Both the position numbers and the translations under genes were made by a program. Of a stretch of 64,000 nucleotides of DNA, positions 19,200 through 63,032 are shown in pieces (within the stretch, counting starts at the first letter, position 1; every line of letters starts with the position of its first letter). Source of the stretch: Mytilus trossulus (taxonomy: Eukaryota); contig NC_086378.1 of NCBI RefSeq assembly GCF_036588685.1, forward strand, positions 17,670,001 through 17,734,000. Direction: 5' to 3'. Below the pieces are notes generated by a model. That model saw only the letters and a list, made by a program, of their open reading frames with translations, searched no databases and was not told where the DNA came from.

Positions 19200-20020
19200 T
19201 TATTTAGCTTTTAATCTACTTATAACAAAGGCAATATTTATACCAATAAAAACAATATTAAATGATCTTATCACAGTGTTGAATAGGTAACCTTTAAGAA
19301 TAAGTTTATTAAGAGGAGCAACAAGTTCACATGGATCATTTCTAAATTTCCGGGCACGGTTAACAACATTTCCGTAAAAATAAGGATGTGCTATCCCGTT
19401 TGAAATAAGTTTTCTACAGGTAGAACCAAACTTCAAAACCAAATCTTTATATCTAAGGAAAAATTTAGTAAAGGTTTTAAGTAATTTATGGTAACGATAT
19501 CCCTGGTTTAATAATTTACCAGTGATACATAGGTTGCGTTCGTTAAAATCAAAAACGTCACAACAGACACGGGCATAGCGAACAATTTGTGAAATATAAA
19601 CACCGTAAGATGGTGCCAAAGGAACATCACCATCTAAAAATGGAAAATTAACAATAGGGAACGAAAAATCATCTCTTTTGTCGTAAATTTTAGTGTGTAG
19701 TTTCCCGTTTAAAACAGAAATATCTAAATCCAGGAAAGGACAGTTATTACCGAATACATTTGATTTATTTAAAGTAAGTTCCTTGGGGTAAATTGCAGCA
19801 GTATATTGAGAAAATTCTTGATAATTTAACGAAAAAGTATCATCAAGATAACGGTCAGTGTTGTTAAATTTATCAATTAAATGCAATTTCGACGGGTCTT
19901 TACTGAGTTTAGTCATAATCTGTGATTCGTAACAGTACAAAAACAAGTCTACTATTAAAGGGGCACAATTAGTGCCCATGGGGATACCTACAACCTGCCG
20001 ATAAATTTTGTTGTCGAAAC
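19200..20020 (-). mobile_element. Penelope-like element RT, 5'-truncated
   Basis: VGIPMGTNCAP..DLFLY, RYLDD, FLDL, YDKRDDF.F.IVNFPFL, YGVYISQ..RYAR; open for 259 aa. Confidence 0.85.
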
Positions 20021-20029
20021 CATATGATT

Positions 20030-20325
20030 GAAATTCATGTCAACACCGAAGTGTTGACTACCGGGCTGGTGATACTATTGGGAAGAGACGTTCACCAGAA
20101 GTAACATCAACCCAGTGTGAATAGTTATCAACTATACCAGTCTAATAATTCAAACCAGACGTCTTGCCTACATAAAACTTATCGGTCACGCTCAGTTAAA
20201 AAAAAGTTAGAAAGGCAAACAAGAACAAAGTTGGAAAGCACTGACACCCAAAATTTTCAAAAAGTTATGCCAAATGTTTTTATATGCCTGGGAGAAGAAA
20301 ATCCATAGTATTTCGAACAATTCAT
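20030..20325 (-). mobile_element. Degenerate hammerhead/pseudoknot repeat unit (retrozyme or pLTR-like) upstream of the RT fragment
   Basis: Contains gactaccgggctggtgatac...caccag...acccagtg and a decayed hammerhead; relatives at about 11737, 16343, 27235, 38140, 48960, 57930 and 63355. Confidence 0.6.
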
Positions 20326-26298: not shown

Positions 26299-26576
26299 TT
26301 AAAAATGTTTAATCTTCATTGCGATAGATTTCATGCTACTGAATGAATTTGTCCATGGATACCAGAACATACTAGTTGTACTTGCATCATAAGGTCCAAC
26401 AATGTACCTTCCATTTGGGTTGACCTTGGTGCACCACCGCAATGGCAAACCCTGATACCACCATCCACCATTCGTATGGTCAGTACACTTTGCTGTGGGC
26501 ATGTCGTCATTGTCACGATCTTTGGTTGAAAATCGTTTATCGGTCAAATACTTTTCACTGCCCAACATTGCATCCC
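26299..26576 (-). CDS. FReD gene 1, exon 5 (fibrinogen domain C-terminus)
   Basis: GDAM...FSTKDRDND...C...GGWWY...C..VNPNG.Y...MKIKHF stop; aag acceptor, phase 1. Confidence 0.92.
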
Positions 26577-29043
26577 CTTAAATTCAAATTAAAAGAAAAA
26601 AAGTAATTAATGTCGGAACTCATAACCTCAGATTTTTTGCTAGAAAAAAAAGTAGAAGACACTCAAATTTAGGAAATTGATATTATATGTAAAAGGTCAA
26701 ATTTTATTTTGACAGAAATGAAAACACTTAGAAAACCTCAGATCAAAACATCTTTAAGATTCAGCGATATGAACTCAACAAAAAACTGAGAATTAATTAA
26801 AGTAACTCAAGTTTAGCTAGCCAAAGTGGTTCAAGGGTATTTTGCTTCAACTTTTGTTAATAATTCCCGCCATCTTACCAACAAGTCTGCAGCTACTGTG
26901 AATGATAAAGGAAACAGGAAAGTATCGGTGTTCGAAGGTCATAAATATATTGTTTTCCGGGTTACAAACTCAAACCGAGAGAAACACATCAACTATGAGA
27001 AGAAAACACACAAGCAACAGGAAAACTAAAGTGCAACACAAAAAAGAAATCTTTAACATACACAGAAACGAGTTTTGCTACCAACTGTTATAATCTTTAA
27101 AAAAAAAGTATTTTAATCTCCTATATTCTTGTATCAAAAAGTTACTATGTAGAACATGGGTCACGCATTGATTTAACGAGGATCATTTGCACATATTTCC
27201 TTTGAAAAAATAACCATTTTATACATTATTGATGTTTATCAAATAACCTCATCATAGAAGCCAGGATTAAAATTTTGTATTTGTGTCAGACGGGCGTCTC
27301 GTTTTAAAAAAAAAAACACGCATCAGTGACGATTGAATTGACAGCAATTAAAAAGGCTGAAAAGTTTTGCCTAATACAGCTAAGGTATCTATTCATGAGG
27401 AAGAAAAGCCTCATTCTTTCAAAAATTCAAAATTGTTTACACTGTTAATATCTAATTATGACCATATCAATGATATTTCATGTCAAGACAGACGTGCTGA
27501 CTTCTGGACTGTTCATAACCTTGGGAAATTAAAACTTCAGTAGTGGCATCCAACACATAACAATTAAGTTCATAGGATTTATTAACTTTTTTTTACAAAT
27601 ACACGTCATTCCAAAAATAGACATGCATTTAACATAACCAGTCCAATCCATAGTAATGAATAGAATTTATTAAGTACAATAGTTCAATCATTCTTAAACA
27701 AATATATGTATTCATTGTTAAGTACATTTTAATTTTCTAGCAGCTACAGATATGATTTCGTTGTTTTTTCTTAATACTACTATCCATAGAGTTATCAATG
27801 AATGAGCAGATAAATATGACATGAAGTTACCACGATTGCCATCAACTAGTTCATGTAGGCCGTACGCATTAATTTATCGGTAAAAAAATGTAAGATTCTG
27901 TTATTACATGAATGAACAAATACAACAGACACAAAACAGTAAGTCATTTCAATTATACCATTATTATAAACTATGGGTAATATTCGGAAACAAACTATTT
28001 ATGTCATGGATGGATACCCTATCCCTTTGTTTTTTCTATTATATGATAGACCACAATGTCCTACGCATACCAATATTACATCAACATTAGTAAATTTTTG
28101 CCGCTGATCAGTCTTTCTCCATTACATAAACTTAATATAAACAAAATCTTCTTCTAAGTATTATTTTACTTATTTGTAATTTTCATTGGAAGCAGCAGAA
28201 AGATTGAGAAAAATACAATATGGACCTGTTTAAAAATTGGTTATCACCGTTAGTCGTTCAAATAAACTGTTTTGGTGTGCCCCATTGGTCATGGAATAGA
28301 TTAAGCGTGATATTCAATCAACATTGAATTAAAAGTACACATATTAGTTTTGTCTGAATATATAAGCAATCTTTATGAAACTAATGAGGCCACTTATTAG
28401 CAAATATGTCGCACTGAATCATGTAAACAACACATATTGTTGCAATCAGAGTAATTGTATTTTCGGTACCAGGGTCCTGGGTCAAAAACTTTACTCAGTA
28501 TTCGGAACAACCAATTGTTGCTCGAAAAACATAAACAATAATTTTCAAGACATGATGCACATTTAAATATATAATGATGGAATGAACTCGGACTTGGATT
28601 TAACAGAGCTTTACTGTGCGTATTGCTGTGTGTTTGTTTTTATACATTGGCTACACATATAGGAGTGGTTTGAGATCTCACAAAACATGTTTAACCCGGT
28701 GATATTTTTTTTTTTTTTTTTGCGAATGTCCAAAGTCAGAAGCTATTGTAAGTCTTGTTTGATATCTAATTTTACGCCATTTCTAAATTTATTATGACTT
28801 CGATTATCACTGAAATAGTACATATTTTTGTTTATGTCCTAGCTTAAGCACGCCTCAGGATACGGAATTTTCTCGCTGTGTTAAAGACCCTTTGGTGAAT
28901 TTTTGCTGTTTTTCTGCTTTTTGGTCGAGTTGTTGTCTCTTAGACACATTCCCTATTTCCATTTTTAATTTTAGGAATACATTTTTTGGTCAAGCATCCT
29001 TATAGTGTCCAAACTGTATTGTATGACTTTAATGTACGCTTAC

Positions 29044-29208
29044 CAGCATTCCCAGTGTACCCATCTAACGTTATTTCATAACCTTTAGACTCATCTGCCA
29101 GTTTGAATATCTTGTACTGAGCATAACGCCATTCTCCAGACCAATCTTGTACGTCGAATCTCAAACTATACGACTTTCCATTTAAGATGTTAAAGATGTT
29201 GTCGTTAC
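29044..29208 (-). CDS. FReD gene 1, exon 4
   Basis: 165 nt, AG/GT bounded; GNDNIFNILNGKSYSLRFDVQDWSGEWRYAQYKIFKLADESKGYEITLDGYTGNA. Confidence 0.92.
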
Positions 29209-29911
29209 CTTCAAAAATAAAGAGAGTCTTTTCAAGATTTTTGTTTTGCTTATTTCAAGGAATCATTTTGTCTTCTTACACTGTGAAATTGAATATAATC
29301 AATGAGAAAAAATAGTAATCAACTTATTTTTCATGCCCACATCTGTCAGCCAGAAGGTGAGATGAAACTTTATTCATACTTGTGTTTTACTTATTTTCTC
29401 TCAGTGCTTTAAACTGTAATATTTTGAATCTTAGGATAACATTCGGATTGCCTTTAAAAGTAATGATAATTTCTTTATTGTCCAAGAATTTAACTGTTGA
29501 TGTAACACGTCTTCTGATTGGCTTACGTCGTTTTGTTTATGAGCCCTAAGACATGATTTTGTGATGTGCCGTGACGTCATCAACATTTGTTCATGATTTA
29601 CTCTGGTATAAAATCGAATACGAATTAAATTATACGAAAGGATTGTGATATTTTTATGTGCCTATTCGAGATAACACAAAAAATATTGTGCACACTTTAA
29701 ATAACCCGTTTTACCATTACGTTGTGCTCGATTCATATCTTGCTAAGCAAAGTCTGTTCACCAAAGAGCTTACGTGATGATATTTTCATTATGATGGTTC
29801 CAACAATCAAATTAAATTCAACCCGGTTTCGTTTTTTCTTATCGATTTATGAATTTTGAACAGCGGTATACTACTGATGCCTTTATTTTTCATGCAAAAT
29901 TCAACCAATTA

Positions 29912-30073
<162 letters not shown>

Positions 30074-30244
30074 CTATAACATATATGTAGAATCGTTGCA
30101 TATTTTTCAAAATTATTTAAAGTAACCATTTTATATAAAGGAACCATTTTATATAAAAGATTCCACTTGTATGTTTTGTCTATCTGATGAGTTAAGCCTT
30201 TTTCAACTGATTTTTATAGCTTGTTCTTATGTTGTACTGTTATA

Positions 30245-30350
30245 CCACTGTCCCAGGTTAGGGGAGGGTTGGGATCCCGTTAACACGTTTAACCCCGCCA
30301 CATTATTTATGTATGTGCCTGTCCCAAGTCAGGAGCCTGTAATTCAGTGG
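30245..30350 (+). ncRNA. Twister ribozyme, type P5 (subfamily 1, core intact)
   Basis: CCACTG..AGGTT a GGG-GA-GGG ... T^AA-CCC-CGCC-[ACAT..ATGT]-G-CCTG-TCCC-AAGT-CAGG-AGCCT..CAGTGG; predicted cut 30290/30291. Confidence 0.8.
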
Positions 30351-32493
30351 TTGTCGTTTGTTAATGTGTAACATATTTGTTTTCGTTCATTTTTTTTACT
30401 TAAATAAGGCCGTTAGTTTTATCGTTTGAATTGTCTTACATTGTCTTATCGGGGCCTTTTATAGCTGACTATGCGGTATGTGCTTTGTTCATTGTTGAAG
30501 GCCGTACGGTGGCCTATAGTAGTTAATGTTTGTGTCATTTTTGTCTTTTGTGGATAGTTGTCTCATTGGCAATCATACCACATCTTCTTTTTTAAATTGT
30601 ATCAAATTTGTGTGCACACTGACGTTTTTGTGAAAACATTTAACAACAACTTTTGAGTTATTTCTCATTCAAAACACTGGAAAAGAAGTATTTTTATAGT
30701 TTAAGTTGTTACATCGCAGTACATGTTCGTAATATTTTAATCCATCGAAACAATATTATTTCCACTTTGCACGTGTTACTTTTTTAAATGACATTTTTAA
30801 TTTATGGACAAAGTATAAGAAAAGAGCAACTTTTTTTACTAAGTTCAAGCAAATGTGTCGAACTATTAAAAAACTATAAAGTGCGACTGACTTTTACAAA
30901 GCTATTTCAATATAAAATTACAAAAGTACTTAAAGTGGCTGGGGCGTCTTAATTAAAACTGACAGAATGTTTTGATAACTTGTCAAAATGAAGCTTTATC
31001 ATGCTTTTTTTCAAAACTGTATTAAAAAGTATGGGTCATAGGACTTTTTTTCACGGTATAGGTTGCGCAAAATTGTCAGATTTTGTATAGATTATTCATG
31101 TAAAATCAAATTGTGTGTGATAAAACGAAAACGTACTATAAGAACTTTAAGATGAAATGTGAGAATATTGCTCTTATAACATGCTTTCAGACAAGCAAAA
31201 GAAAAGATGGGGTCCCTGAATTTGTTTTCTGGCTTCATATCGAAATATCTGCTTATCTAAAATCCAAGATGAAGGAAGACACCCGAGCCTCCTTAAGTCA
31301 GAGGAAAATTCAAAACGGAATGTCCGTAATCAAATGGCAAAATCAAAAGCTCAAACACATCAAACGAATAGAAAACAACTGTCATATTCCTGACATGGAA
31401 ATTATAACTGTAAAATGATTGATTAAATAGAGAAACAAGAGATCGAAGCTATGAGCGCAAATCACGGCCGTCGCTTTTTCAATTGACTGAGTCAGACTTG
31501 GTGAACATTCTTTTGTAACGTTGAATGATCACATCGTACTTTTTCGAGATATTTAAACTGTGGGGTCGACAAAAAATCTAAACCATAATCAAATAACATG
31601 AATACATGTATAAGCAGACGACTAAACCTTGAGTTTTTTAATGATGAATACTTAAACATTATGTTTTTCATTTAATGCACATGCTCAAATAACACAATAT
31701 TCGCATACCAGTACCAAAATACAGAAATACTGAGTTTATATGTTGTGTTGACTATCATATCATTTATGTGTGCGTGTATCTATGGTGATTGTTCTTGTGT
31801 GTGTTTGTGCTGTTTTTGGTCAAGTTGTGTAGTCTTTCAGAGATATTTTAGATATTGTCATCAAGCGGGGAGATTGCCTATTCGTTATTCAAAGTTTTAA
31901 CTCACCATGTTGTCCTTAAAATGTCATGCAACAAGTCAGGAGTATGACAGTTGTGATCCAATAGTTCGTTTCAATAAGTATTCTCTTGTTTCTTTTACGT
32001 TTTTTCTCACTTAAGAGTCCCTATTGTTCATTGTTTTCCTATTATAGTTGATGTGTTTTAGTTTGTTCAGTAAAGTTTATGCAGGTGCATGAGAAGAAAG
32101 GTATTCTACATTAAATTCAACACACAAAATTTATCATCTGCTAGTTATTTGTTTTATTTGATATATTCATTTAGAATCTTAGGCGACAACCCCCCCCCCC
32201 CCCCCCCCCCATTCTAAAATGTCAGCAACAAGTACGATGCGATAACTCAGCTTTTCATAGCGTACACCTCATTTGACCCAGTTCGTTGCTATAATCTGTA
32301 CTCGTCAAGAAATTGTCTCGTCCAAACTGTTTGAAAATGATTAAAATTCATTCCAGACAAAGGAAACATCTAACCATCTAGCAATACCTTATTGAATTCA
32401 AAAGTAAATTTAGATTTGTACTTTCACAAGTTATGATTCAAATAATTTCTGAGTATTTGAAACTCCGGTACTTAAATATAGACTTAGAAATAC

Positions 32494-32612
32494 CGTCCAT
32501 CCGTCTGCTACCATATCACAATAAACATATATATAGCTGTTGTTGACAAACATCCTGTATACCCCGTTGGTGCTTCCTTGAGGATTTTCGGAGCAGTCAG
32601 TCGGTCCATGAC
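32494..32612 (-). CDS. FReD gene 1, exon 2 (start of the fibrinogen domain)
   Basis: 119 nt; PTDCSE....NGVYRM......VYCDMVADGWT; phases fit exons 1 and 3. Confidence 0.9.
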
Positions 32613-33190
32613 CTATAATTTAAAAAATAAGATTCCTGCGTATAGAGAATATTGTGTATTTAGCATCAGTATGGCTCCTCAAACCGTGCTGTATATCGTG
32701 ATTATGAGAGCCAGGACAACAGTTTTCCGAACAATTCTTAAAAAAACCAGATATAAAATCCGTATAATGAGGATCCCGCTAACATATTTAACCCCGCCAC
32801 ATTATTTATGTATGTGCCTGTCCCAAGTCAGGAGCCTGTAAATTCAGTGGTTGTCGTTTGTTTATGTGTAACATATTTTTTCTCGTTCACTTTTTTACAA
32901 AAATAAGGCCGTTAGTGTTCTTGTTTGAATTGTTTTACAATTTCTTATAGGTGCCTTGTTTTTCTGATTATGTGGTATGGTTTTTGCTCATTGTTGAAGG
33001 CCGTACGATGACCTATAATTGTTAATGTCTGTGTTATTTTGGTCTTTTGTGGATAGTTGTCTCATAAGCAATCATACCACATCTTTTTTTTATATTATAA
33101 AGAAATTGTGTACCCGTTTGATATTAAGACTGAATTAAATTTCTCAATAAATCATTTACAGGTATGTTAAATGTATTAAGTCTTACTTAC

Positions 33191-35404: not shown

Positions 35405-36799
35405 TTAATCGTTGTTGTGTTTCCATGGTAACTTTGTATAATCTTCGTCGTCGCGAAACTCTATATAGCTCTCTTTTCCGTGTACTCCTGGAGATTCTAT
35501 TCCTGTAGCTTCAATCTTCCTAAACGCTTCTAAGTCGTGTTCTTCTGTTTTATGTGAAATAAGAACATTGAAAATGCTTGACGCTGTTGATAAGTGTGGT
35601 TTTTCTAACGGTCCAGAAAGTAAGTACCCTAATTTCGATTTGACTGCGGTGGGTCCGTTTCCGCGTACAACTTTATCTTCAATTATTTCCCAATAAAAAT
35701 CGGCTCCAATTAATAGTGAAATTTCGAATGAATCCTGTTGCGTAACTGGATGTGCGAGCTTTAGTCCTTGCAAATAGTTATTATTCCTGTCAATGTAACG
35801 AATGTGGTTCTGTAACGGCGTAGCTATCATTTGAACGATTAATGCATATATAGGTATTTTATGTCCAGTTTCAGTTTCAACATAAACTGTGGCTTTATCG
35901 AGTCGCCTAGCATTAGTGTTGGTTTCTCCAAATGATGAGAGTTGAATCTTTTCGGCTCCTTCTCTCTGCAGGTTTAATTTTCGCGCAAGACTCTCCGTTA
36001 CAAAAGACCTTTGAGCGCCTTCATCAAACAAAATATTCGTATCTGTGCAATTATGATCTGACCAAACGGGGGCCACAGCAGTTTTCAACAATACTTTTGA
36101 GTGAGTTTGTGCTGACGAGTGTAATACTGTTGAGTCTTCTTGTATCTCGGTATCCTTCACAAGATTAACTACAGTCGGTGTAGATGTCGTACTTTCGTTC
36201 GTACAACTGTGAGCGGAATCTTTCGTGTCAGTGAAACGGTTTTCACTTCTCTGGTCGGGGTTCGCGGTTTGTCCAACTTCATTACATAAACTAGTGTGGT
36301 GTCGTTTACCACAGTTACGACATGAGCTTTTCGTTTTGCATTCCTTTATGTGATGTGTACCGAGGCAGTTGAAGCATAAATTGTTACGTTTAACAATAGC
36401 GATGCGTTCATCTAAATCGCGTACTTTCTGGCAGTTGGCAGGCGAATGAATGTCTTTGCAGAAAATGCACGGCTTTTCTGTTAAATGCTGATTCATATTT
36501 CTAGTACTTGCGTTGTGTTTTCTTTGTGTGTTAGCACCGGCGAAAAGGGTAGTATACGAAATATCACTTTCCGTCTGTGTAACTTGTCCGGCTTCCATGA
36601 TTTGTATCTCTTTATGTATACTTTTTCGAAGATCTGGTAATAACCAATTTGTCGTACCATGCTCCCGAGCGAGATGCTTTCTGATTTCTCCGGGTAGTTT
36701 GTTGATTATAATCGGAACTAATAAATTACCGTATGAGTCCTGTGTCTGTCCTAGCGATTCAAGTCCTCTAACTAAACTCTCCATTTTGTCATAAAACAT
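35405..36799 (-). CDS. BEL/Pao Gag C-terminal half, three Zn knuckles and aspartic protease, truncated before RT
   Basis: CIFCKDIH...C, CFNCLGTH...C, CRNCGKRHHTSLC; LFDEGAQRSF; ISLLIGAD; S.LGYLLSGP. Confidence 0.9.
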   Translation of the reverse strand: MFYDKMESLVRGLESLGQTQDSYGNLLVPIIINKLPGEIRKHLAREHGTTNWLLPDLRKSIHKEIQIMEAGQVTQTESDISYTTLFAGANTQRKHNASTRNMNQHLTEKPCIFCKDIHSPANCQKVRDLDERIAIVKRNNLCFNCLGTHHIKECKTKSSCRNCGKRHHTSLCNEVGQTANPDQRSENRFTDTKDSAHSCTNESTTSTPTVVNLVKDTEIQEDSTVLHSSAQTHSKVLLKTAVAPVWSDHNCTDTNILFDEGAQRSFVTESLARKLNLQREGAEKIQLSSFGETNTNARRLDKATVYVETETGHKIPIYALIVQMIATPLQNHIRYIDRNNNYLQGLKLAHPVTQQDSFEISLLIGADFYWEIIEDKVVRGNGPTAVKSKLGYLLSGPLEKPHLSTASSIFNVLISHKTEEHDLEAFRKIEATGIESPGVHGKESYIEFRDDEDYTKLPWKHNND

Positions 36800-36987
36800 G
36801 ATGCGTTCTCATTTTTTTCATTCAGTGTGTCGAGTAACTTCTTCTTCTGTTGTAGATTTTCGTATGTGGCTAACAACTCCTCTCGGTCGAATTCAGAACT
36901 TTCTTTTGCGTCGGCAAATTTTCGTAAAAGTCTGGTAACGGCACTACGATTGGCCGTTCTTCTTGATTTCAGCTTTGGTAGCTCCAT
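36772..36987 (-). CDS. BEL/Pao Gag N-terminal fragment, out of frame with the rest because of an internal deletion
   Basis: ATG 1 nt after the PBS; LKSRRTANRSAVTRLL helical Gag start. Confidence 0.7.
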   Translation of the reverse strand: MELPKLKSRRTANRSAVTRLLRKFADAKESSEFDREELLATYENLQQKKKLLDTLNEKNENASCFMTKWRV

Positions 36988-43174: not shown

Positions 43175-46100
43175 TTGCAGTCTTTCTAATTAGTAATTGT
43201 TTATCAAAAAAAGTTTTTAAATACATTTGGAATACAAGATTGTCATGTTATTGTTATTTTCCTGTTTTAAAAATAGATATTTTGTATGTCTATATTTAAC
43301 GATTAACATGCCACTTTTTAGTACATATTTGTTAAATGGAATATATATTACTGTTTTGGATTTATTGTTAAAGATAATTATTTATGTTCTAAAGTTCAAT
43401 ATTTGCATTGTTGCTTATCATTTATAACCTTTGTCGAAAGACTTAATAGTTTTATATAAGTTGTTTGAAAAAATATTGCTGTATATGGTTGTTGGCATGA
43501 GTGAAATTGACTGCTATGTTATTCTACTACTGTTGAATGACGTTCAATCCGACTAGTGGAAGCTGTGCTCTGCCGGATGCTTTCTTTATTATTAGAGTTA
43601 TTCAATGCTACATTTCTCTAATTTTGGTGTACATAATGAAAAATGTACTATTGAATAAATTATATAGTTTTCTTTTTTTTTAATTTCAAAAGTGCTGTTA
43701 AATTCGGCATCCATCGTATTTTAATTGATCAGTTGTCAAATTAGACCAATCTGTGGTCTGCATCCTCTGCATAATTGATTCTTTTACATACATGTCGGAC
43801 CCCACTCCCTTATTTCTTTAATGGCTTTTAGATATTTGGTGGACAGGGGGAATTGATTCCCAGTTCCCTCCCCAAATTCTTACTTCACTCCATATTCTGT
43901 TCCTCAGTACTGCCTGAAGCTTTTATTCATCAGATTTTCATTTATAGTTCTCTTATTACATAGTTCCTATAATTCTGTCCACAACCTTATCAGTGTCACA
44001 ATGACTCGCACCCATTACAAACCCATCATTTGGCGACAAATTATATTATACTACCTGATTTGTTTCCTAAAGGCAAAAATTACTAGTCAGTTTTGTTTGC
44101 TTTAATAATGGCCATTTTTTTCCACACATCTCGTTTTTAACTCCCATGCATATTTTTTACTATCAATTATATGCCTTAACGCACACAAAACAAACTATCT
44201 TTTTTACAAAACCACAAATATTACATAGGAAATACATATTAAGGTTTTTTTTATTAAAGTTTACTTTGTGAGCCCAACGTGAGGAATCAATTATAAAACA
44301 TGGGTAAGCAAAAGAAATATCTAGATGTTTTGAAAATGGACTATAATTGATGATTTATCCCCTACACGACTTGTCTCTCCTGGGATTTAAACACATTGAA
44401 ATTGGAGATTGAATTGTCTCCCTTTGATAACAGTTAGTACCAAAGAACGATTATTTGTTTATTTATTTTTTATTGATTAACAATAGTTAAAAAGGATAAT
44501 ACTTTCAATTTCAAGGTCTCACAAAGACTTTTTCACCTATTATTCTAATTTTACATTAAAAACCAAAATTTTGATAAAAAGACTACAGTTCATTGACTTA
44601 CTTTTATTCAAATTACTTGTGAATACAGAACCGTTTGCTAAAAGTTTAAATAACTTGCGATAACGTAGTTCTTGACTGAATTATTTGCCAGATGCACTAA
44701 GATATTCCAACGGCAAACCCGAGCAGAACGAATGGTTTTGAGAAATATACACAATATAAATAGAAGTATTACTGTCCAAAAAATAAATATATCAGTCCAC
44801 CAGCAGAGCCATCGACCTAACGGTAGTAATAACGTTAACGTTACAAAGTATATTGGTCCACCAGCAGAGGTATCGACCGAGCGGTAGTAGTAACATAAAC
44901 CGTACAATTGAGCTACACCAGATTCGCATTTTATCAATCAGTTACGAAGACCTAGGATAATATTGGGAAACTTTATCTTTTCGCAACGAGATGATAACGA
45001 ATAAAATAAGGGATAAAATGTTCAGTCTATAATAATCATTGTGTCTTTTTCATGATTTTTTTTACACTTCAGTAGAACTGAAAAGCAATATATTTGTTCG
45101 TTTTGAATTTGTCTCTATTGCATTATGCTGTATTTGCAATTATAATTTACCATATAATCAATTAGGGATGTCTTAACTACAAAATAAAATTTGATCAATG
45201 AGTTCGACTGGTTCCGTTCTGAGATGAATAAGTATTGTTAGTATATAATTCAATCAAGATTTGTAATTTGATGTAGATTCAGTTTGTTGTGGGGTCAAAA
45301 ATTATAATGATTTCTCGGGAGTCACGAAATGGATGCGTGAATATACAAATATGTATGTCGTCCTAGCCGATGAATACTCAGATGTTGAAGAAGTTAATAA
45401 ACATCCAAAGACTTTATCTGTGCCAGAATTAGACAACACTTAGTTTACCTTTTGGCCTTCTACATTTTAAGATTTGAATACCACTGATAAAAATCTATTA
45501 AACGAATTTTTGATTTTCATAAATAACATTCACTATCTTACATGTTTTAAAGGCATTCGAGAAAAGGGATTTTTCATTGAAATAGTATTCACGGACGGTT
45601 AATGATATTTTTTAGTAATCAAAGGGCACCACGTACAATTTCGTTCCACAAACATAGAGCAAATAAAAAATTCTTGAAAATAACACAGCTATTTGCATAT
45701 CATTTTCAATCGTAAAATCATAAATCATATCGACCTGCGCAGAGGGGAAACACAAAAAAAAACTATAACTGTTCAAAACGCAAAATAAAATTTAGGTAAC
45801 ACGGGAAAGTGCTTTTTTTTATCATTGTTTATATTGATTTATTTTATAATATACACAATTAACAATTCATCGAACAATACAAGTAGGAAAATTATTAATG
45901 CAAGCATTGCTTCCTTGTTCGTCATGACACAAGCAACGATTGGTTGTTTTCGTCAGGAATGGAAGAGAAAACAAGCGTCCTGGTTTATGTTTTTTAATTA
46001 AATGAAACAAAAACGAAATCAATGAGAGTAGTTAACATTCTTGTGTCTTATATAATATAGCATAGATTGTTTCTTATATGAATGAAACTACTACATATTT

Positions 46101-47439
46101 CTAAACAAAGATTTATTTATAGTTATGTCTATAACTTTTGATCTACATACCTACCATGTTGTTATGGCACCTTTATATTCGCATCATTAAATTGATTCAT
46201 GTTCAGTTTTTTTTCAGGTTATGAATAATGCAGGTGTATTGAAGATATGGTTGTTATCATTCAATGCTACCCAGGTTGATACTCTATCGTTATATAAATG
46301 AAATGGTGTATTTTCATTGTGTTTTATTTGATATTTCCGAATACAGCGATATCCTACTGTTGCCTTTATTACAGCATTACTAATTTTATGATTAAGTATA
46401 GATTAAAACAATGTGCATTCTATTACACCATTCTGGTACAAAATTGACATTTTTCTTATACCTTTCAGTGTCGTGTTTTCAGTGCTCTCCCACCAGCCAA
46501 TTAAAGGAATATCTAGTTATTACACAATTAAAAATATAAGTAGATTTAACTTTGCACCTTCAAAAACGGACGCAGTGTTTAAACTATTAATTATACAACT
46601 ATATTGCAGTTAGACCTAGACTGATCTAACATTTTCCGGTTTCATACTGAACTAAAAAGAGCACACTATTTATATGTTTTTCGTTCATTTTTTACATAAA
46701 TAAGGCCGTTAGTTTTCTCGTTTGACTTGTTTTACATTGTCTTATCGGGGCCTTTCATAGCTGGCTACGCGGTATGGGCTTAGCTCATTGTTGAATGCCG
46801 TACGGTGACATATAGTTGTTAATGTCTGTGTCATTTTAGTCTTTGGTGGATAGTTGTCTCATTGACAATCAATCACATCTTCTTTTTTATAGTTTCGCTC
46901 GGTTTTGTTCGCATCATTAACACCTCATTATCGTTTGTATTCAAATTAGCTCGATTTTTTCAATACAAAATGGTTGCAAAATAACTGTTGGTGTACGTAC
47001 GTAAACATTTTTGACGAGAAATTAACCATCAGAATGGCTTTATAATGACGTTCTGTTGTATAATAAAAACAAACCCACTTATCCAAAATCAGGACACACC
47101 AGCATATAACATTACCAACTCACTTACAGCGGAACTTTAACATTTAACTACTATAATATATAAAGTAAACAATTGTCCTGGGTGATCTTATATGGGTAAT
47201 TTTCAGAATATGTCGAATTGTGAAACTGAAAAATTTATTAAAAACTACTTCTTCAAACAACCCTCAACATAGGCAAATCAACACACACAGTACTTTAAAA
47301 ACAACATAGTAAAAGATGCAATCTTAATGATGTCACACAAGAATATCTTGAAACATTTTTTGATCGGTGATACAATATTTTGTCTATCCTGTTACCATTT
47401 TCAAAAGAAATTTTGGTTATTAAGAAAAAGAAGAACCTT

Positions 47440-47760
47440 TGATAACTAATTAGATAAGGTAAGTCCTCCGATTTGGTGTTCAATGTAATGTTTATTGAAG
47501 CCATAAAGAACTTGTGATTTGCTAAAATATCATCCTTGTCAAATGATATGTATTTGTATGTGGGATTACCTGAGTACTCCGTTATACCCAATTCTTTCTG
47601 AAGACATTCGTAGTAATACCATTTACATACAAAGACAATATAATTTGAAGCTTTTGTCCGCAGGAACAACAACATATCATGAAGAGTTGATAGACATTTC
47701 ATGGCCTCTTTGTCTCTTTGTTATAAACACGCTATTGTAGCTAGCTTCTTCCTATTTGGT
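47440..47760 (-). mobile_element. Penelope-like RT N-terminal fragment
   Basis: KCLSTLHD/VVPADKASN.IVFVCK.YY..CL.KELGI...GNPTY...DLPYL, with a frameshift. Confidence 0.7.
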
Positions 47761-52784: not shown

Positions 52785-54063
52785 ATCTAGAAGTGGCGTG
52801 AAAAAGATGTGGATACTTAAAAATTCCAAGGATCTTTTAGAGTACATACAATCTAGCTCTTTTTCATCTTGTAACAGTATTTAATCATTTGACTTATCTA
52901 CTCTTTACACAAGTATTCCACATTCCAAACTAAAGGACAAATTGAAAGAGTTGGTATTACTTTGCCTCATAAAAAAGATTGGCCATAGAAGTTACAAGTA
53001 TCTTGTCTTAGGGAGGGATAAATCCTACTTTGTAAAGAATCGCTCTGATTCAAACAAAATATTCTCTGACACCGATATTATCAAGATACTTTATTTCTTG
53101 ATTGACAACATATTTGTTACGTTCGGAAGACGTGTTTTTCAACAGACTGTCGACATCCCAATGGGAATAAACTGTGCCCCTCAATTTGCCGACTTGTTTC
53201 TTTATTATTATGAGGCTGACTTCATGCAAACTCTTCCTCGGAAGAAAGATAAAAAGTTAGCAATATCCTTTAACTATACTTTCCGCTATATAGATGACAT
53301 TCTTTCACTAAACAATTCAAAATTTGGTGACTATGTGGAACGCATATATCCAATCGAATTGGAGATAAAGGATACTACAGAACAGTTAAGTCGGCTTCAT
53401 ATCTTGACTTGCATCTAGAAATTGAAAATGAGGGTTGGTTGAAAACAAAACTTTACGACAAAAGAGATGATTTCAGCTTTTCAATTGTGAACTTTCCATT
53501 TCTAAGTAGCAACATTCCAGCAGCACCTGCATGCGGGGTATATATCTCCCAATTGATACGATATTCCCGTGCTTGCATTTCCTATCATGATTGCCTTGAT
53601 AGAGGGTTACAGCTCACAAGTAAACTATTAAACCAAGAGTTCCAAATGGTGAAGTTGTTATCATCCCTTCGTTAATTTTACGGACGCCATCACGAGTTGG
53701 TTGACCGTTATGGAATAACCGTTTCACAAATGATATCGGATATGTTCCTTACGTCGTAACTACAATCCCCTTCCCTTTTATGAATGTGACCTACCGAATT
53801 AGACTATTTAGCGGATTTGTAATCACATAAGCAACACGAAGGGTGCCACATGTGGAGCAGGATCTGCTTACCCTTCTGGAGCATCTGAGATCACCCTAGT
53901 TTTTGGTTGGGTTCGTGTTGTTTACTCTATAGTTTTCTATTTTGTGGCATGTGTGCTATTGTTTTTCTGTTTGTCTTTTTCATTTTTGGCCATGGCGTTA
54001 AAAGTCAGTTTGTTTAAGATTTATGAGTTTGACTGTCCCTTTGGTATCTTTCGTCCCTCTTTT
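52785..54063 (+). mobile_element. Penelope-like element: RT (frameshift near 53380, stops) plus structured 3' tail
   Basis: MWILKNS, FDLSTLYTSIPH, PMG.NCAP..ADLFLY, FRYIDD, YDKRDDF, GVYISQLIRYSR. Confidence 0.88.
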
Positions 54064-54330
54064 GGAGCTCTATGCTCTTCATTTTTTTTTACTTGTTTTG
54101 GCTCTTGAACTTTACATCTAAGCGTCACATTTTAATGTTGTGTTTCCGTTGTGTTCCAGTTCTCCTCTTATATTTGATGAGTTTCCCTCTGTTCTAGTTT
54201 GTAACCCGCATTTGTTTTTTTTCTCAATCGATTTAAATTGCGAACAGCGGTATACAACGTTTGTCTCTATTAACATTGGTATTACTTAGTTTTTCCAATT
54301 GAAATGTCTGTTCATGCAAACCAGGTTTAA

Positions 54331-54583
54331 AATATTGAAAACAACACTTTAATAATTTCTTGCGTCCGAAGCGCTTTTCTGGATATACCTTCATCAGGAA
54401 CGCTCAAAGCCAAACATTTGAAATCCGAAGATGTATAAGTACCGAAACTGTTGAAGAGCTGTATGTCAAAAAATACCTAAAATAATTAGCCAAATTCATC
54501 TTAAGCCAACTTTGCCTGAGGGAGTTAAAACCTTAGTTTCTTAATAATCTATAAATTTATAAACGGACAATTTTAGTAAAGTT
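54331..54583 (-). repeat. Solo partial copy of the 350-bp hammerhead repeat
   Basis: Near-identical to the first 250 bp of the 58751 unit; hammerhead core at 54362-54403. Confidence 0.9.
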
Positions 54584-57289: not shown

Positions 57290-57564
57290 TCAAGAATGTT
57301 TAATCTTCATTGTGACAGATTTCATACCTTCGTTTGAAAATGTCCATGGATACCAGTAGACACTTTCTTCTTCAATTCCACCATTGTACTTTCCATTTGG
57401 ATTGACAAAGGTGCACCGATAATTAGTCCATGCTTCTTTAGCATACCACCATCCAGCTTTCATATAGTAAGTGCATTGCCCACCGGACCAGTTGTCATTA
57501 TCACGATCTTTGGTTGAAAATGGTTGACCGGATAATTGAGAGAAGATGTCCATCACGGCATCCC
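57290..57564 (-). CDS. FReD gene 2, last exon
   Basis: GDAV...FSTKDRDND...C...AGWWY...C..VNPNGKY...MKIKHS stop; same intron position as gene 1. Confidence 0.92.
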
Positions 57565-58750
57565 CTAAGTTTTATTAAATAGAATAAAAATATTAGTCTT
57601 GGAACTTTAATCTTGGTTTTGCAGAGTATCTGGTAGAATGATAAAACTATAGTAGACACTAACAGATGGCAAAATAATAAACAAAAACAGACAATCAGAT
57701 TTTGGTTAAAGTGAAAAAGAATAAAAGCAAGAAAAAAGTTATCCAGACATAAGATTCAGTGTAACAAAATCAATCTAAAATTACGAATGAGTAAATGGAA
57801 TTTGAAAGAATATGAAGTTTTTTTCCATAGATCAATCAGCTGTATTAATTATTCTAGTAGATAACTTCTAGAACTAGAAATGTTTGCAGGGTCATAATCC
57901 GTCTCCTTAACAATCAAACATATCCGTAATTTTATCTTGACTCATCAATGCTTCCCTTCCTTTCACTTTGTATTTTATTTGGCTTTTTTTACATTTTTGA
58001 TTCGAGTATCACTGATGTGTACTTCGAACACAAAGTTATACGGAAATTCTGGTATATATGATGAGATTGTATAAATCTAATAAAATTGAGAATGGATATG
58101 GGGAAAATGTCAAAGAGGCAACAGTTCAGTGAACATTGACGTCATACTAAACTCCAAAACATATAACTGAACTCAAACGAAGAAAAACTACAAGAGTAAC
58201 AAAGACAAGAAGCTCTTGACTTGGGAAAGGCGCAAAAATCCCGTGGGGTTAAACATGTTTTGGAGATCTCCCCCCCCCCAGTAAACCTCTAGCAAATGTA
58301 CAATAAAGAAACCCATATCAATAGAGGTTTCCTGAACTGGTATGTATCAGGTGCAATTGGTATGTAACACAACCTTGCATGCTGTTATTGAGGTGTCGTT
58401 TAAAATATGTTATTATTGTATTCATCAATATGAAATTTAAAAAATCGAATTGCATATTTGTGATAAAAACCTTAATCTTTTATTTATTTACGATTTCACT
58501 GCTTCTAGAACACTTTGTTTGTGTTTTATACAATAATATTTATTGTATGCACAAGGAGAATGAACCAAACAGTCCTTACTGGTATTGAGTTGTTTGGACT
58601 TTTAGATTCTGAATATAGGTTTTGCGTTTCTGTATATCTTGGTGATTTTTTTTTTTTTTTTTGTGTATTTTCAGAAAATAAAATAGAATAAAGAATTTGT
58701 TCTGATATTTGAATAGAATTTGGAATAATAAGAAAATATATATTCATAAT

Positions 58751-60177
58751 ATATTAAAAACAACACGTTTAAAATTTCTTGCGTCCGAAGCGCTTTTCTT
58801 GATTTACCTTCATCAGGAACGCTCAAAGCCAAGCATTTGAAATCCGAAGATGTATAAGTACCGAAACCGTTGAAGAGCTGTATGTCAAAAAATACATAAA
58901 ATAAATAGACAATTTCATCTAAAGCCAACTTTGCCTGAGAGAGTTGAAACCTTAGTTTCTTAATAATTTATAAATTTATAAACGGACAATTTTAGTAAAG
59001 TTTGTTAAATCATGGCAGTACCGAAATACTGACTACCGAGCTGATGATACCCTCGGGGACTGATAGTCCACCAGCAGAGGTATCGACCCAGTGATGTAAA
59101 ATATTAAAAACAACACGTTAAAAATTTCTTGCGTCCGAAGCGCTTTTCTGGATTTACCTTCATCAGGAACGCTCAAAGCCAAACATTTGAAATCCGAAGA
59201 TGTATAAGTACCGAAACCGTTGAAGAGCTGTATGTCAAAAAATACCTAAAATAAATAGCCAATTTCATCTAAAGCCAACTTTGCCTGAGAGAGTTGAAAC
59301 CTTAGTTTCTTAATAATTTATAAATTTATAAACGGACAATTTTAGTAAAGTTTGTTAAAGCATGTCAGTACCGAAATACTGACTACCGAGCTGATGATAC
59401 CCTCGGGGACTGATAGTCCACCAGCAGAGGTATCCATCCAGTGATGTAAAATATTAAAAACAACACGTTAAAAATTTCTTGCGTCCGAAGCGCTTTCCTG
59501 GATTTACCTTCATCAGGAACGCTCAAAGCCAAACATTTGAAATCCGAAGATGTATAAGTACCGAAACCGTTGAAGAGCTGTATGTCAAAAAATACCTCAA
59601 ATAAATAGCCAATTTCATCTAAAGCCAACTTTGCCTGAGGGAGTTGAAACCTTAGTTTCTTAATAATTTATAAATTTATAAACGGACAATTTTAGTAAAG
59701 TTTGTTAAATCATGTCAGTACCGAAATACTGACTACCGAGCTGATGATACCCTCGGGGACTGATAGTCCACCAGCAGAGTTATCGACCCAGTGATGTAAA
59801 ATATCAAAAACAACACGTTAAAAATTTCTTGCGTCCGAAGCGCTTTTCTGGATTTACCTTCATCAGGAACGCTCAAAGCCAAGCATTTGAAATCCGAAGA
59901 TGTATAAGTACCGAAACCGTTGAAGAGCTGTATGTCAAAAAATACCTAAAATAAATAGCCAATTTCATCTAAAGCCAACTTTGCCTGAGAGAGTTTAAAC
60001 CTTAGTTTCTTAATAATTTATAAATTTATAAACGGACAATTTTAGTAAAGTTTGTTAAATTATGTCAGTACCGAAATACTGACTACCGAGCTGATGATAC
60101 CCTCGGGGACTGATAGTCCACCAGCAGAGGTATCGACCCAGTGATGTAAAATATTAAAAACAACACGTTAAAAATTT
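58751..60177 (-). repeat. Tandem array of 4 x 350 bp (plus about 27 bp), retrozyme-like
   Basis: Units start at 58751, 59101, 59451, 59801 and 60151; only a few substitutions between units. Confidence 0.95.
59131..59172 (-). ncRNA. Type I hammerhead ribozyme variant (also 59831-59872 and 54362-54403; mutated at 58781 and 59481)
   Basis: GCGUUC-CUGAUGA-A-GG-UAAAU-CC-A-GAAA-A-GCGC-U-UC^-GGACGC: 6-bp stem I, palindromic AAGCGCUU stem III. Confidence 0.75.
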
Positions 60178-61309
60178 ACTTTCGTAGTCGATTCTTAATT
60201 ACTTAGATGATATAATCTACCAAGGATACGTGAAAATGGCAAAATTACGTTCAAAATCGTGTTGGTTTCTCTTTAAAATCAATTGTTATTAACATATTCA
60301 TCTTTTCTATCATTGAAGCAACATTTTGTCTAAAACGCAACACATTGTTAAAATATCCTTTTCCTTATATTTTGTAACTGGACATTTCGGTTTATGTAAT
60401 CATTATAAAAAATGATGCTTATATAACTTATAGAACGAACATTTAACTTCAAAGAGGGTATAGATTTAAAAAAAAAAAATATTCTGATCCCCATTGTGAT
60501 GAAGAAAAAAATTCTGTGGAAACAGAGGACAAAACAAATATTATGAACACAAATTTCCCCCTTTCCTTATAGAGTTACATTTTGAAATAAATCACATGTT
60601 TGGTACAGGGAACAGTATATATGGGTGCTGGGAACGGTATATCAAAATATGTTCCTGTATGGTAGCAGTGAAATATGATATAACATTTCTGACTTAAACC
60701 ATATCACAACCAACCCCCTCGCTTTTTGAAGTTAAATGTATAATGAATATACGTATTATGACACTGACGAAAACCATTTCTAGAGTCAAAATATTTATCA
60801 GTACATTATGAGTGAATATAGAAGCGAGTAAATTTGTATACTGTACGAGCTGGAGAGTAGTATATATATAATTACAAGGTTTAATGTTAACCAATATCCA
60901 TCCATCAATCCTTTTGTCGTACTGCGATGCTAGAAAAACTGTTTACATCACTGCGTTTGTTTTAACTGATTACGCCAATAACATGACGCTATATTTGCAC
61001 TAATTTAATTTGAAAATGTCTTTCGATTTTTTTATTGTTCTACGTTAAATACTTTTAGTTTTTTTTACTTTTGTTAATAAATTTAATTCCTTCTTAAAAT
61101 ATATCTTATGTGTTTATATTTTCCAAAAACCTATCAAAAATATAAACTAAACTGAATCGTTTTATACCATTATAAAGTTATTACAAAAAAAATTACAAAG
61201 TTTTCTTGTTATTTACTTTTTACTGTCAACCTTTCGTGCCAACGGTTGTTTGAAAGCATAATCGAATACACGCAATATTGTGTATTAGAAAAATATGTTT
61301 ATTTCCGAT

Positions 61310-61560
61310 TCAAAGATCCTAAAAGTGAATCAACATTAATGTAAAAAATGCCATCCTTAATGGCCAGAAAACAGAATTGTACCCATATCCCATATGAATA
61401 AGTTTGTTTAAAGGTTTAGTTAGATTTTGAGGAAAATACCGACATTTTTGTGCTTTGGAAATGATATTACCATTAAAGATTGGATGTGAAATACCTGAAC
61501 GTATAAGATGTCTCCATGCTGATTTATATTTACGAATGATACAAATTATATGGAATTTTA
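61310..61560 (-). mobile_element. Penelope-like RT extreme C-terminal fragment
   Basis: RHLIRSGISHPIFNGNI...PLNKLI..GY matches the end of the 19200-19979 ORF. Confidence 0.7.
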
Positions 61561-62419
61561 TATAACTAAAAAACAACAACAATGAGATACAGGCAGTCGT
61601 TCTAAGCAGCTGTTTAAGTGTGTCCTATTTGCCACGGAATAACTTTAACGTGGCGTATCATCTCAAAACACGACCTGGTATTGCCTGAACGATTATAAAC
61701 AATCTCGCAATACCTGGTTTATTGGTTAATCAAAATGTAACTTCAGGAATAATGTTTTCTTAATGCGATTTTAAGTCAATAACTTAAAAAAGAGCATTAT
61801 TGAAGACCTCATGAGTATAGGACCATCGGTTTAATAGTAAAATCTGATTTTGTCTTTTTATAAAGCTAAAATAGGGGTATGCCTCTTACAAGAAGGTCAA
61901 ATCTCCTCGGTCAAAATGTACAGAAGTTGCACCTTAATGACCCAAACATTTACCACAAATCAAGTCAAAGGTCAAGGTCAACATATAAATCTGAGTTAAG
62001 ATTACAAGCAATATACAAAACTTTGAACATGACCTTGACCTTTGACGTTAATCTCAATTTCATCCAAATGGACCATGGACTCTATGCCAAACGACTAAAT
62101 GCCCATGTGGCTTTTACTGTAGGAATCTATTCAACATATCACCTATGTTAAATTTTCAAAGGGAAATAACTCCAATAAGATGTCATCCAATAACATCAGT
62201 TAAATTTAACCAAAACAGTTTGTTGAAAAGATAACAAGAAAAAGGGAACACGTGGAGATAACTCCTATAAGAAAAGGTGTTTAGTTACACAGGTTGTGTT
62301 TTGACGTTCCCATCACTGTATATCAACCGAGCCAAAAATCCTATCGATATGTTGTAAAACAAAAAGCAGCTGAAGAAAAATTTTTTAAATGTGAAAAAAA
62401 CTATCAGAACAAAAGTAAA

Positions 62420-62780
62420 AGGTCTTTCCACGAAAAGTGGAAAGACCTAATAATCAAAACAAGTTTAGAAAAGATCCTCTCACAGAAAAGTGGAAAGACT
62501 TACTAAATAAAACAGAGGCAAAATGTATGCACGAAATTTGGAAAGACTTAAACATCAGAAGAAGCAAGAGGTAACATCGAAAAGTTGAAAGACCTAATAA
62601 TAATAAATTGAAGAAATACAGTAAGGTTTCTCCTTTTGGAAAAGGAATGACCTTTATGATAATAATAATCGGAAGAAATACAGTAAGGTCTTTCTCTTTT
62701 GGAACAGGGAAGACCTTAATAATAATTATCAGAAGAAATATAGTTAGGACTTTCCCTTTTGGAAAACTAATAACCTTCAA
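62420..62780. repeat. Array of about 7 degenerate palindromic units, 50-60 bp period
   Basis: aggtctttccac-gaaaa-gtggaaagacct and variants separated by aataat...agaagaaata linkers. Confidence 0.7.
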
Positions 62781-62867
62781 CATAAAAATTAAAAACAATT
62801 GTGTCCCTTATACGCTTCAGTAATATTTGGTCCAACAAATATGGCATGCTCTTCCTTGTAAGCTTAC

Positions 62868-63032
62868 CAGCTGTTCCTCTATACCCAGCTAATGTTAATC
62901 TATAATTGTCAGATTCGTCTGCTATTTTGAATGTCTCGTACTGAGCATAGCTCCGCTCTCCAGAACCCCTCTCTAAGTCAAATCTCAAACTATACGACTT
63001 TCCATTCAAGATATTAAAGATGTTGTCGTTAC
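62868..63032 (-). CDS. FReD gene 2, penultimate exon
   Basis: 165 nt, AG/GT bounded; GNDNIFNILNGKSYSLRFDLERGSGERSYAQYETFKIADESDNYRLTLAGYRGTA. Confidence 0.92.

Follow-up and report, generated by a model that had tools for sequence, protein, structure and literature searches.

A decaying retrozyme array in a mussel FReD intron, likely written by a Naiad reverse transcriptase priming beside a shared hairpin

How does a small non-coding tandem repeat with a hammerhead ribozyme in each unit come to lie in the intron of a host gene, which enzyme writes it there, and does it matter to the gene? These questions are raised by a 350-bp array in the last intron of a FReD gene of Mytilus trossulus, within a stretch of 64,000 nucleotides (NC_086378.1, positions 17,670,001 to 17,734,000) that is called the window here and whose own numbering is used below. 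Retrozymes, their circles and a suspected link to Penelope-like elements (PLEs) are already in print (PMC7229834, PMC8557442, bioRxiv 10.64898/2026.07.22.740005), and the papers that define animal retrozymes leave open both the copying enzyme and the way in which a circle without a 3' end is primed. A Naiad partner, a hairpin or a start site for retrozymes was not found in the literature searched, the supplements of PMC7229834 and of the bioRxiv preprint lying outside its scope.

The array (58747..60178, minus strand, which is also its RNA sense) belongs to what we call retrozyme family A and consists of ~341 nt, three full 350-nt monomers and a 3' tail of 36-40 nt, its 5' edge in the RNA sense lying near 60178. 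TRF gives a period of 350 bp, 4.1 copies and 97% matches at 58747-60185, and pairwise comparison of the four units, in the register of an earlier note on this DNA, gives 7-10 differences over 350 positions (97-98% alike). Hammerheads, all on the minus strand, are found in unit 4 (59831..59872, type I and family-type, predicted cut 59837/59836), unit 3 (59481..59522, predicted cut 59487/6, with an A-to-G change in the GAAA box and with the cleavage site and helix III palindrome intact), unit 2 (59131..59172, family-type, predicted cut 59137/59136) and unit 1 (58781..58822, predicted cut 58787/6, with an intact core and one broken helix II pair). The earlier note held that only units 2 and 4 have an unmutated core; this stands for these two units and for the mutant unit 3, but the core of unit 1 is also intact. 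Naiad-type hairpins lie on the same strand at 60085..60142 and 59035..59092 (family-type copies), 59735..59792 (one stem change) and 59385..59442 (two changes). The 3' tail (58747..58786, minus strand) stops at the fixed end of the family, a U-run before the would-be next hairpin at which reverse transcription presumably started. No match was obtained when the whole window was searched against Rfam at the gathering threshold. A separate 5'-truncated family A insertion (54328..54583, minus strand) has an intact hammerhead and the same 3' end as the array; it lies in the array's orientation ~2.7 kb downstream of the FReD2 stop.

The array has sequence properties by which retrozymes are recognized: the 350-bp period falls within the 150-450 bp range of their tandem repeats, each unit carries a type I core (two family-type, two with point changes), and the sequence is low in GC (36%), non-coding, with no stop-free stretch above 98 codons within the array, and dispersed in many copies. 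Its host is the last intron of FReD gene 2 (57565..62867, minus strand, 5303 nt, GT-AG, phase 1), which separates a penultimate exon (62868..63032, minus strand) from the last coding exon with the stop (57290..57564, minus strand). Judged by homology this intron is real: its GT donor (62867) and AG acceptor (57565) correspond in position to those of a paralogue (29033/26577), the last three exons join in frame over 179 codons to the stop with no internal stop, and each of them, including the two just named, matches Pfam Fibrinogen_C. The paralogous FReD gene 1 (26305-32619, minus strand) has the same exon layout and a last exon that is only 46% identical, and a degenerate 46-62-bp tandem repeat lies in the same FReD2 intron near the donor (62429-62778). 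The earlier description of four 350-bp units with minus-strand type I hammerheads, sense in the last FReD2 intron, was thus confirmed by TRF, unit comparison and intron homology, and its reading as a sense-oriented non-LTR retrozyme array is supported by the tandem units, the hammerheads and the dispersed family.

The exact 36-nt family A hammerhead occurs 651 times in the 1.30-Gb genome compared with no occurrence of a reversed control, so that the motif is not a matter of chance; leaving helix II free raises the count to 1,215. Two sister families, of which one has 11,014 exact motifs and the other 3,628, are called B and C here; they are 68-71% identical to family A overall and 79-91% identical within one 58-nt hairpin. 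Family A arrays elsewhere reach 13 units; as a separate observation, a family B motif recurs every ~355 bp over 26 kb near a chromosome start (G000 C1:269292-295169) in a satellite-like manner. The non-LTR retrozymes described from Mytilus galloprovincialis resemble family A in their ~350-nt tandem units with 36% GC, one type I hammerhead per unit, many dispersed arrays, and a 2-bp helix III with a palindromic tetraloop (PMC7229834). The published Rtz375 (PMC4918200, Additional file 11), as far as that record goes, has the same hairpin after its tail, judged by eye, and a hammerhead of the family B type, unlike the window array with its reduced helix II. Family A may be one of the two mussel families of PMC7229834, whose available text mentions neither the fixed 3' end nor a Naiad link; sequence comparison makes family A a sister family to the published mussel retrozyme, set apart by its atypical helix II.

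The insertion in the window is an ageing one. Four array-specific variants are common to all its units and about five more are private to each, whereas units of young family A arrays elsewhere are 0-2 differences apart, which fits a single template followed by decay; by this comparison, a dispersed family of retrozymes inserted here once, and the copy has been decaying since. A contig (C15) that resembles the array region at 96-97% over more than 14 kb, and is probably the other haplotype to judge from that identity, carries the identical insertion and 3' junction with an 857-bp deletion, which leaves two hammerheads, both family-type and 350 nt apart; the helix II change of unit 1 is not present there. 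It also carries the separate insertion at 54328-54583. Between the orthologous last units there are 8 differences in 350 positions, a divergence similar to that of the flanks, and the insertion is therefore older than the split between the two copies. Contigs of the DNA runs, compared with the two array flanks, gave no joint or loose end indicating an empty site.

The ends of the copies bear most directly on how such arrays are written. Family A copies end ~37-41 nt past the cleavage site and, measured relative to the first paired base of the hairpin, 34 of 41 ends in a similarity-selected sample lie 1-12 nt before it and 40 of 41 within -12..+8, the +8 allowing for chance matches in AT-rich flanks. 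In a second sample, taken by exact hammerhead and genome order, the counts were 36 of 40 and 38 of 40, giving 70/81 ends at 1-12 nt before the hairpin for both samples together; the rows are not all independent, as L083 and L103 have common flanks and L021 is the window insertion itself. Similarly, copies of family C (14/15) and terminal copies of family B (9/11) end before the hairpin. The 5' starts of the second sample, by comparison, spread over the whole monomer, with 2/40 near the cleavage site against 4.0 expected. A pile-up of starts at the cleavage site was considered and set aside rather than refuted: it was seen in the first sample, where 9 of 40 arrays, the window array included, start within 20 nt of the site (binomial P 3.5e-4), that sample being selected for copies of at least 350 nt and four of those nine extending 3-10 nt upstream of the site, and it is absent from the second. 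Target-site duplications, which exceed 4 bp in those animal retrozymes that have them, were no commoner than chance allows (3/41 at ≥7 nt; shuffled mean 0.7, maximum 3). A cleaved monomer primed only ~40 nt past its 5' terminus could not give rise to such copies, and we infer that the template was continuous across the cleavage site.

The way to a partner lay outside the array, in a broken reverse transcriptase (RT) fragment (52885..53672, plus strand) that is 85% identical to a young intact family of Naiad PLEs; together with a piece at 47298-47720 (minus strand), the window thus holds broken fragments of both Naiad families of this study. The young family has 24,184 first-look candidates with open frames of up to ~1000 aa. 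The order GIY-YIG, CxC, DKA and RT was seen in two loci (L116 and L148), and Pfam places GIY-YIG before RVT_1 in the partner elements, three of the four matches being below the cut-off. The partner elements thus have the N-terminal GIY-YIG, CxC, DKA and C-terminal RT of Naiads and agree with the published description of these PLEs in the 3.4-4.3-kb units, partial tandems and 5' truncation as well (PMC8557442). L116 (C58:63500-73400) contains two full 3370-bp Naiad units in tandem, each with a 1000-codon open frame.

These Naiads share with the retrozymes both a hairpin and an end point. Of 12 Naiad family 1 loci, 3 are 5'-complete and begin with the retrozyme hairpin, and a version with an inserted stem opens 11 of 17 loci of family 2, the two families being 51-58% identical in protein. 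Naiad copies finish at the corresponding place: 1-6 nt before the would-be hairpin start in 11 of 12 family 1 loci; in family 2, ends were fetched for 9 of the 17 loci, and 7 of these stop at this point as well. Retrozyme A and Naiad 1 are 81% identical over the 58-nt hairpin, compared with 50% over the 38 nt before it and 55% after it, so that their similarity is confined to the hairpin. This differs from the SINE type of parasitism, in which the 3' terminal sequence resembles that of the autonomous element, since here the last 38 nt are the dissimilar part and the hairpin downstream the similar one. BLAST found no match between the family A monomer and the 3' UTRs of Naiad 1, or between the family A hammerhead and the UTRs of that family. 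Across eight representatives, 95% of the cells of the hairpin are paired and 8 of 23 pairs are changed on both sides, while none of 500 shuffles scored as high and slid controls reached at most 50% pairing; the structure was derived from these same related sequences, which inflates both controls, and the result is strong rather than a probability. A metagenome scan with the hairpin core gave 80 loci, of which 8 passed a strict full-hairpin filter and 13 were inspected, and three further Naiad-like metagenome contigs have the hairpin at their start or tandem junction. The PLEs compared for the hairpin in this genome were the two Naiad families, and another PLE, such as one of the hammerhead-bearing clades, may have the same hairpin. 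The hairpin may also serve as an internal promoter or share sequence with one. Elsewhere in the window, a 61-bp tandem repeat (44788-44907) has 19 nt in common with the hairpin, and in a decayed family B piece (20019-20203, minus strand) the hairpin runs straight into a Naiad-like RT fragment, possibly a chimera. A 467-codon open frame at 35408-36808 (minus strand) contains motifs reminiscent of cysteine-histidine knuckles and may be the gag of an LTR retrotransposon.

Given that retrozyme copies end just before the Naiad-shared hairpin, the array was likely written into the FReD2 intron by a Naiad RT primed at the U-run that precedes it. By analogy with a lizard Poseidon element, the Naiad protein would bind the hairpin, nick AT-rich DNA and prime internally at the U-run. 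The RT would then copy through the ribozyme site on a ligated circle or an uncut multimer, two templates that fit the genome data alike, with repeated passes giving tandem units and premature stops giving 5' truncation. In the lizard system, the RT starts internally, cuts AT-rich DNA and requires RNA downstream of the start, while hammerhead cleavage is dispensable (PMC11167929). The retrozyme resembles that element, PAc Poseidon, in its fixed genomic end downstream of the hammerhead site, its AT-rich targets and the need for RNA downstream of the start, the last of these being a proposal in the case of the retrozyme. PAc Poseidon, however, is autonomous, belongs to another clade and starts in an AC-rich stem-loop ~85-92 nt past the cut site, unlike the proposed start of family A at 37-41 nt, in a U-run before a hairpin. 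A Penelope-like RT as mobilizer, as the earlier note had it, is therefore supported as likely and is here narrowed to Naiad by the hairpin and the end point held in common.

A more specific proposal, which we rate slightly above an even chance, is that mussel retrozyme circles parasitize hammerhead-less Naiads by means of a recognition hairpin placed downstream of the priming site and hence outside the copied end. Circularization by the ribozyme would put this hairpin behind every priming site, so that a single 350-nt unit could be copied round and round. The retrozyme is non-coding and carries a hammerhead, in contrast to Naiads, which are reported without one, and the suggestion that retrozymes exploit PLEs is as far as the consulted text of PMC8557442 goes. 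Xenopus retrozymes resemble PLE termini and have likewise been proposed as PLE hijackers (bioRxiv 10.64898/2026.07.22.740005). That study concerns vertebrates, with Neptune and Poseidon as widespread clades and Naiad only in a coral; the available text of the preprint gives no cis-element or priming site and ascribes tandems to unequal crossover.

The family A hammerhead itself is unusual. Its 6-bp helix I and 2-bp helix III closed by a palindromic tetraloop fall within the canonical definition of type I, which asks for 6 bp in helix I and for 1-2 bp and a palindromic loop in helix III (PMC4209133), whereas the 4-bp helix II closed by G10.1-C11.1 is present in families B and C and lacking in family A, in which helix II consists of an A.A mismatch and two G-C pairs. 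It could accordingly be argued that this hammerhead, whose 2-bp helix II has an A.A at its base, is a dead relic and that the family spreads as uncut read-through multimers with no circles. The departure from canonical motifs (PMC4209133) would fit such a relic, as would the A before GAAA, which is kept in 98 of the first 100 listed copies, the rarity of family A (the fewest exact motifs of the three families) and the in vitro independence of the PLE from hammerhead cleavage (PMC11167929). The relic reading is opposed, however, by two subfamilies that differ at 0/44 hammerhead positions against 12/207 elsewhere, a comparison that is partly circular as the second subfamily was found by exact motif, and by a ~73%-identical relative that keeps the helix II layout and in which helices I and III are changed yet paired. 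Relatives of family A at ~73-80% identity, which share its atypical helix II and carry the hairpin, were seen in metagenome-record contigs (L188:107-242, L223, L176, L241). Helix III, an 8-nt palindrome, has a duplex energy of -10.1 kcal/mol; the hammerhead conformer of one unit, by contrast, is weak (-2.2 vs -8.2 for the minimum free energy fold), and together these values make dimeric cleavage likely. The circular monomer of family A (-69.1 kcal/mol) is no more stable than 40 mononucleotide shuffles (mean -71.1, sd 4.6). On balance, the hammerhead of family A probably retains activity, at a slow rate and in dimeric form, and we consider a dead relic unlikely.

A model favoured in the Xenopus preprint (10.64898/2026.07.22.740005) would instead make retrozymes deletion derivatives of Naiads that keep the 5' end as an internal promoter; single units would arise by insertion of linear RNAs whose 3' end is defined, and arrays would grow by unequal crossover. 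The position of the hairpin at the Naiad 5' end fits this model, as do the short length of most unbiased copies (fewer than two units), the 857 bp lost from the haplotype-like copy and the exact 4-unit and 3-unit higher-order repeats inside two arrays (L027, C1:75.605-75.609 Mb; L038, C40:1.443-1.446 Mb), which are local duplications or assembly artefacts. An origin of the latter from 3- or 4-mer circles was rejected as the repeats exclude the first unit and the tail; not spanning the array ends, they indicate that some tandem growth is local, and from such repeats and the deletion we take some later growth and shrinkage of arrays to be local. The compensatory pairing, however, points to an RNA structure, and the arrays open with 5'-truncated partial units at scattered phases with a fixed 3' end. 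Retrozymes and Naiads also differ in their copied 3' ends, so that the only common feature at the insertion end lies downstream of it. Deletion derivatives are thus quite unlikely in our estimation, and copying by a Naiad RT primed beside the hairpin remains the preferred account.

What does the array do to its host? The cleavage sites lie 1.2-2.3 kb from the FReD2 acceptor, and polymerase moves at 1-4 kb/min. The rate measured for a mussel retrozyme is ~0.1/min (PMC7229834), or a half-life of ~7 min if applicable to family A, so that most transcripts would reach the last exon uncut. This rate and the published circular RNAs may come from another family than A, since the hammerhead of Rtz375 is of the family B type. 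Splicing was retained in earlier work in which a slower hammerhead cut the intron (PMC2995048), and severing of the pre-mRNA, which the earlier note raised as a possibility before the last exon, is for these reasons unlikely to affect FReD2 output. A specific 700-nt product was also predicted there from the family-type units 2 and 4, and would hold only for monomeric cleavage and only on the window haplotype: in a dimeric hammerhead the core of one unit cleaves the neighbour's site (PMC4209133), the site of unit 3 is intact and could be cut in this way, and the C15 sites are 350 nt apart, so the 700-nt RNA is not a specific prediction; both hairpins within that piece are mutated. Host transcription could instead free monomers or circles from the intron slowly, probably via dimeric hammerheads and with little effect on FReD splicing.

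An intronic ribozyme does modulate CPEB3 mRNA, with a half-life of 2-3 min and a distance of 9.9 kb to the following exon (PMC10919898), and Xenopus retrozymes are depleted in introns, yet ~43% of their copies are intronic and eight of nine predicted Xenopus dimers gave no in vitro cleavage (bioRxiv 10.64898/2026.07.22.740005). Within genomic copies, hammerheads change at least as often as the other positions (singleton changes per nt, 0.64 vs 0.48), and the FReD2 frame is open. Even with a sense-oriented array in the last intron and two family-type units, it is therefore improbable that FReD transcription yields a multimer cut mainly at units 4 and 2 into a 700-nt RNA, with the pre-mRNA severed enough to cut FReD2 output, given the slow published rate, the near acceptor, the weak single-unit fold and the palindromic helix III that favours dimers. 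In itself the locus seems unremarkable, an ageing insertion like hundreds of others, with nothing to suggest that it controls FReD.

For the questions left open in the defining papers, the data point to Naiad as the partner, to an element of 58 nt and to a start site placed within a few bases, and they suggest a reason for which Naiads require their own 5' end again downstream. If the parasitism of Naiads by retrozyme circles is real, no cis-element of Naiad transposition would have been defined before this hairpin, which would also be a portable signal by which a circular RNA is copied through target priming. Family A, whose motif is a candidate for a natural hammerhead of unusual helix II layout, would then use a natural hammerhead without the G10.1-C11.1 pair.
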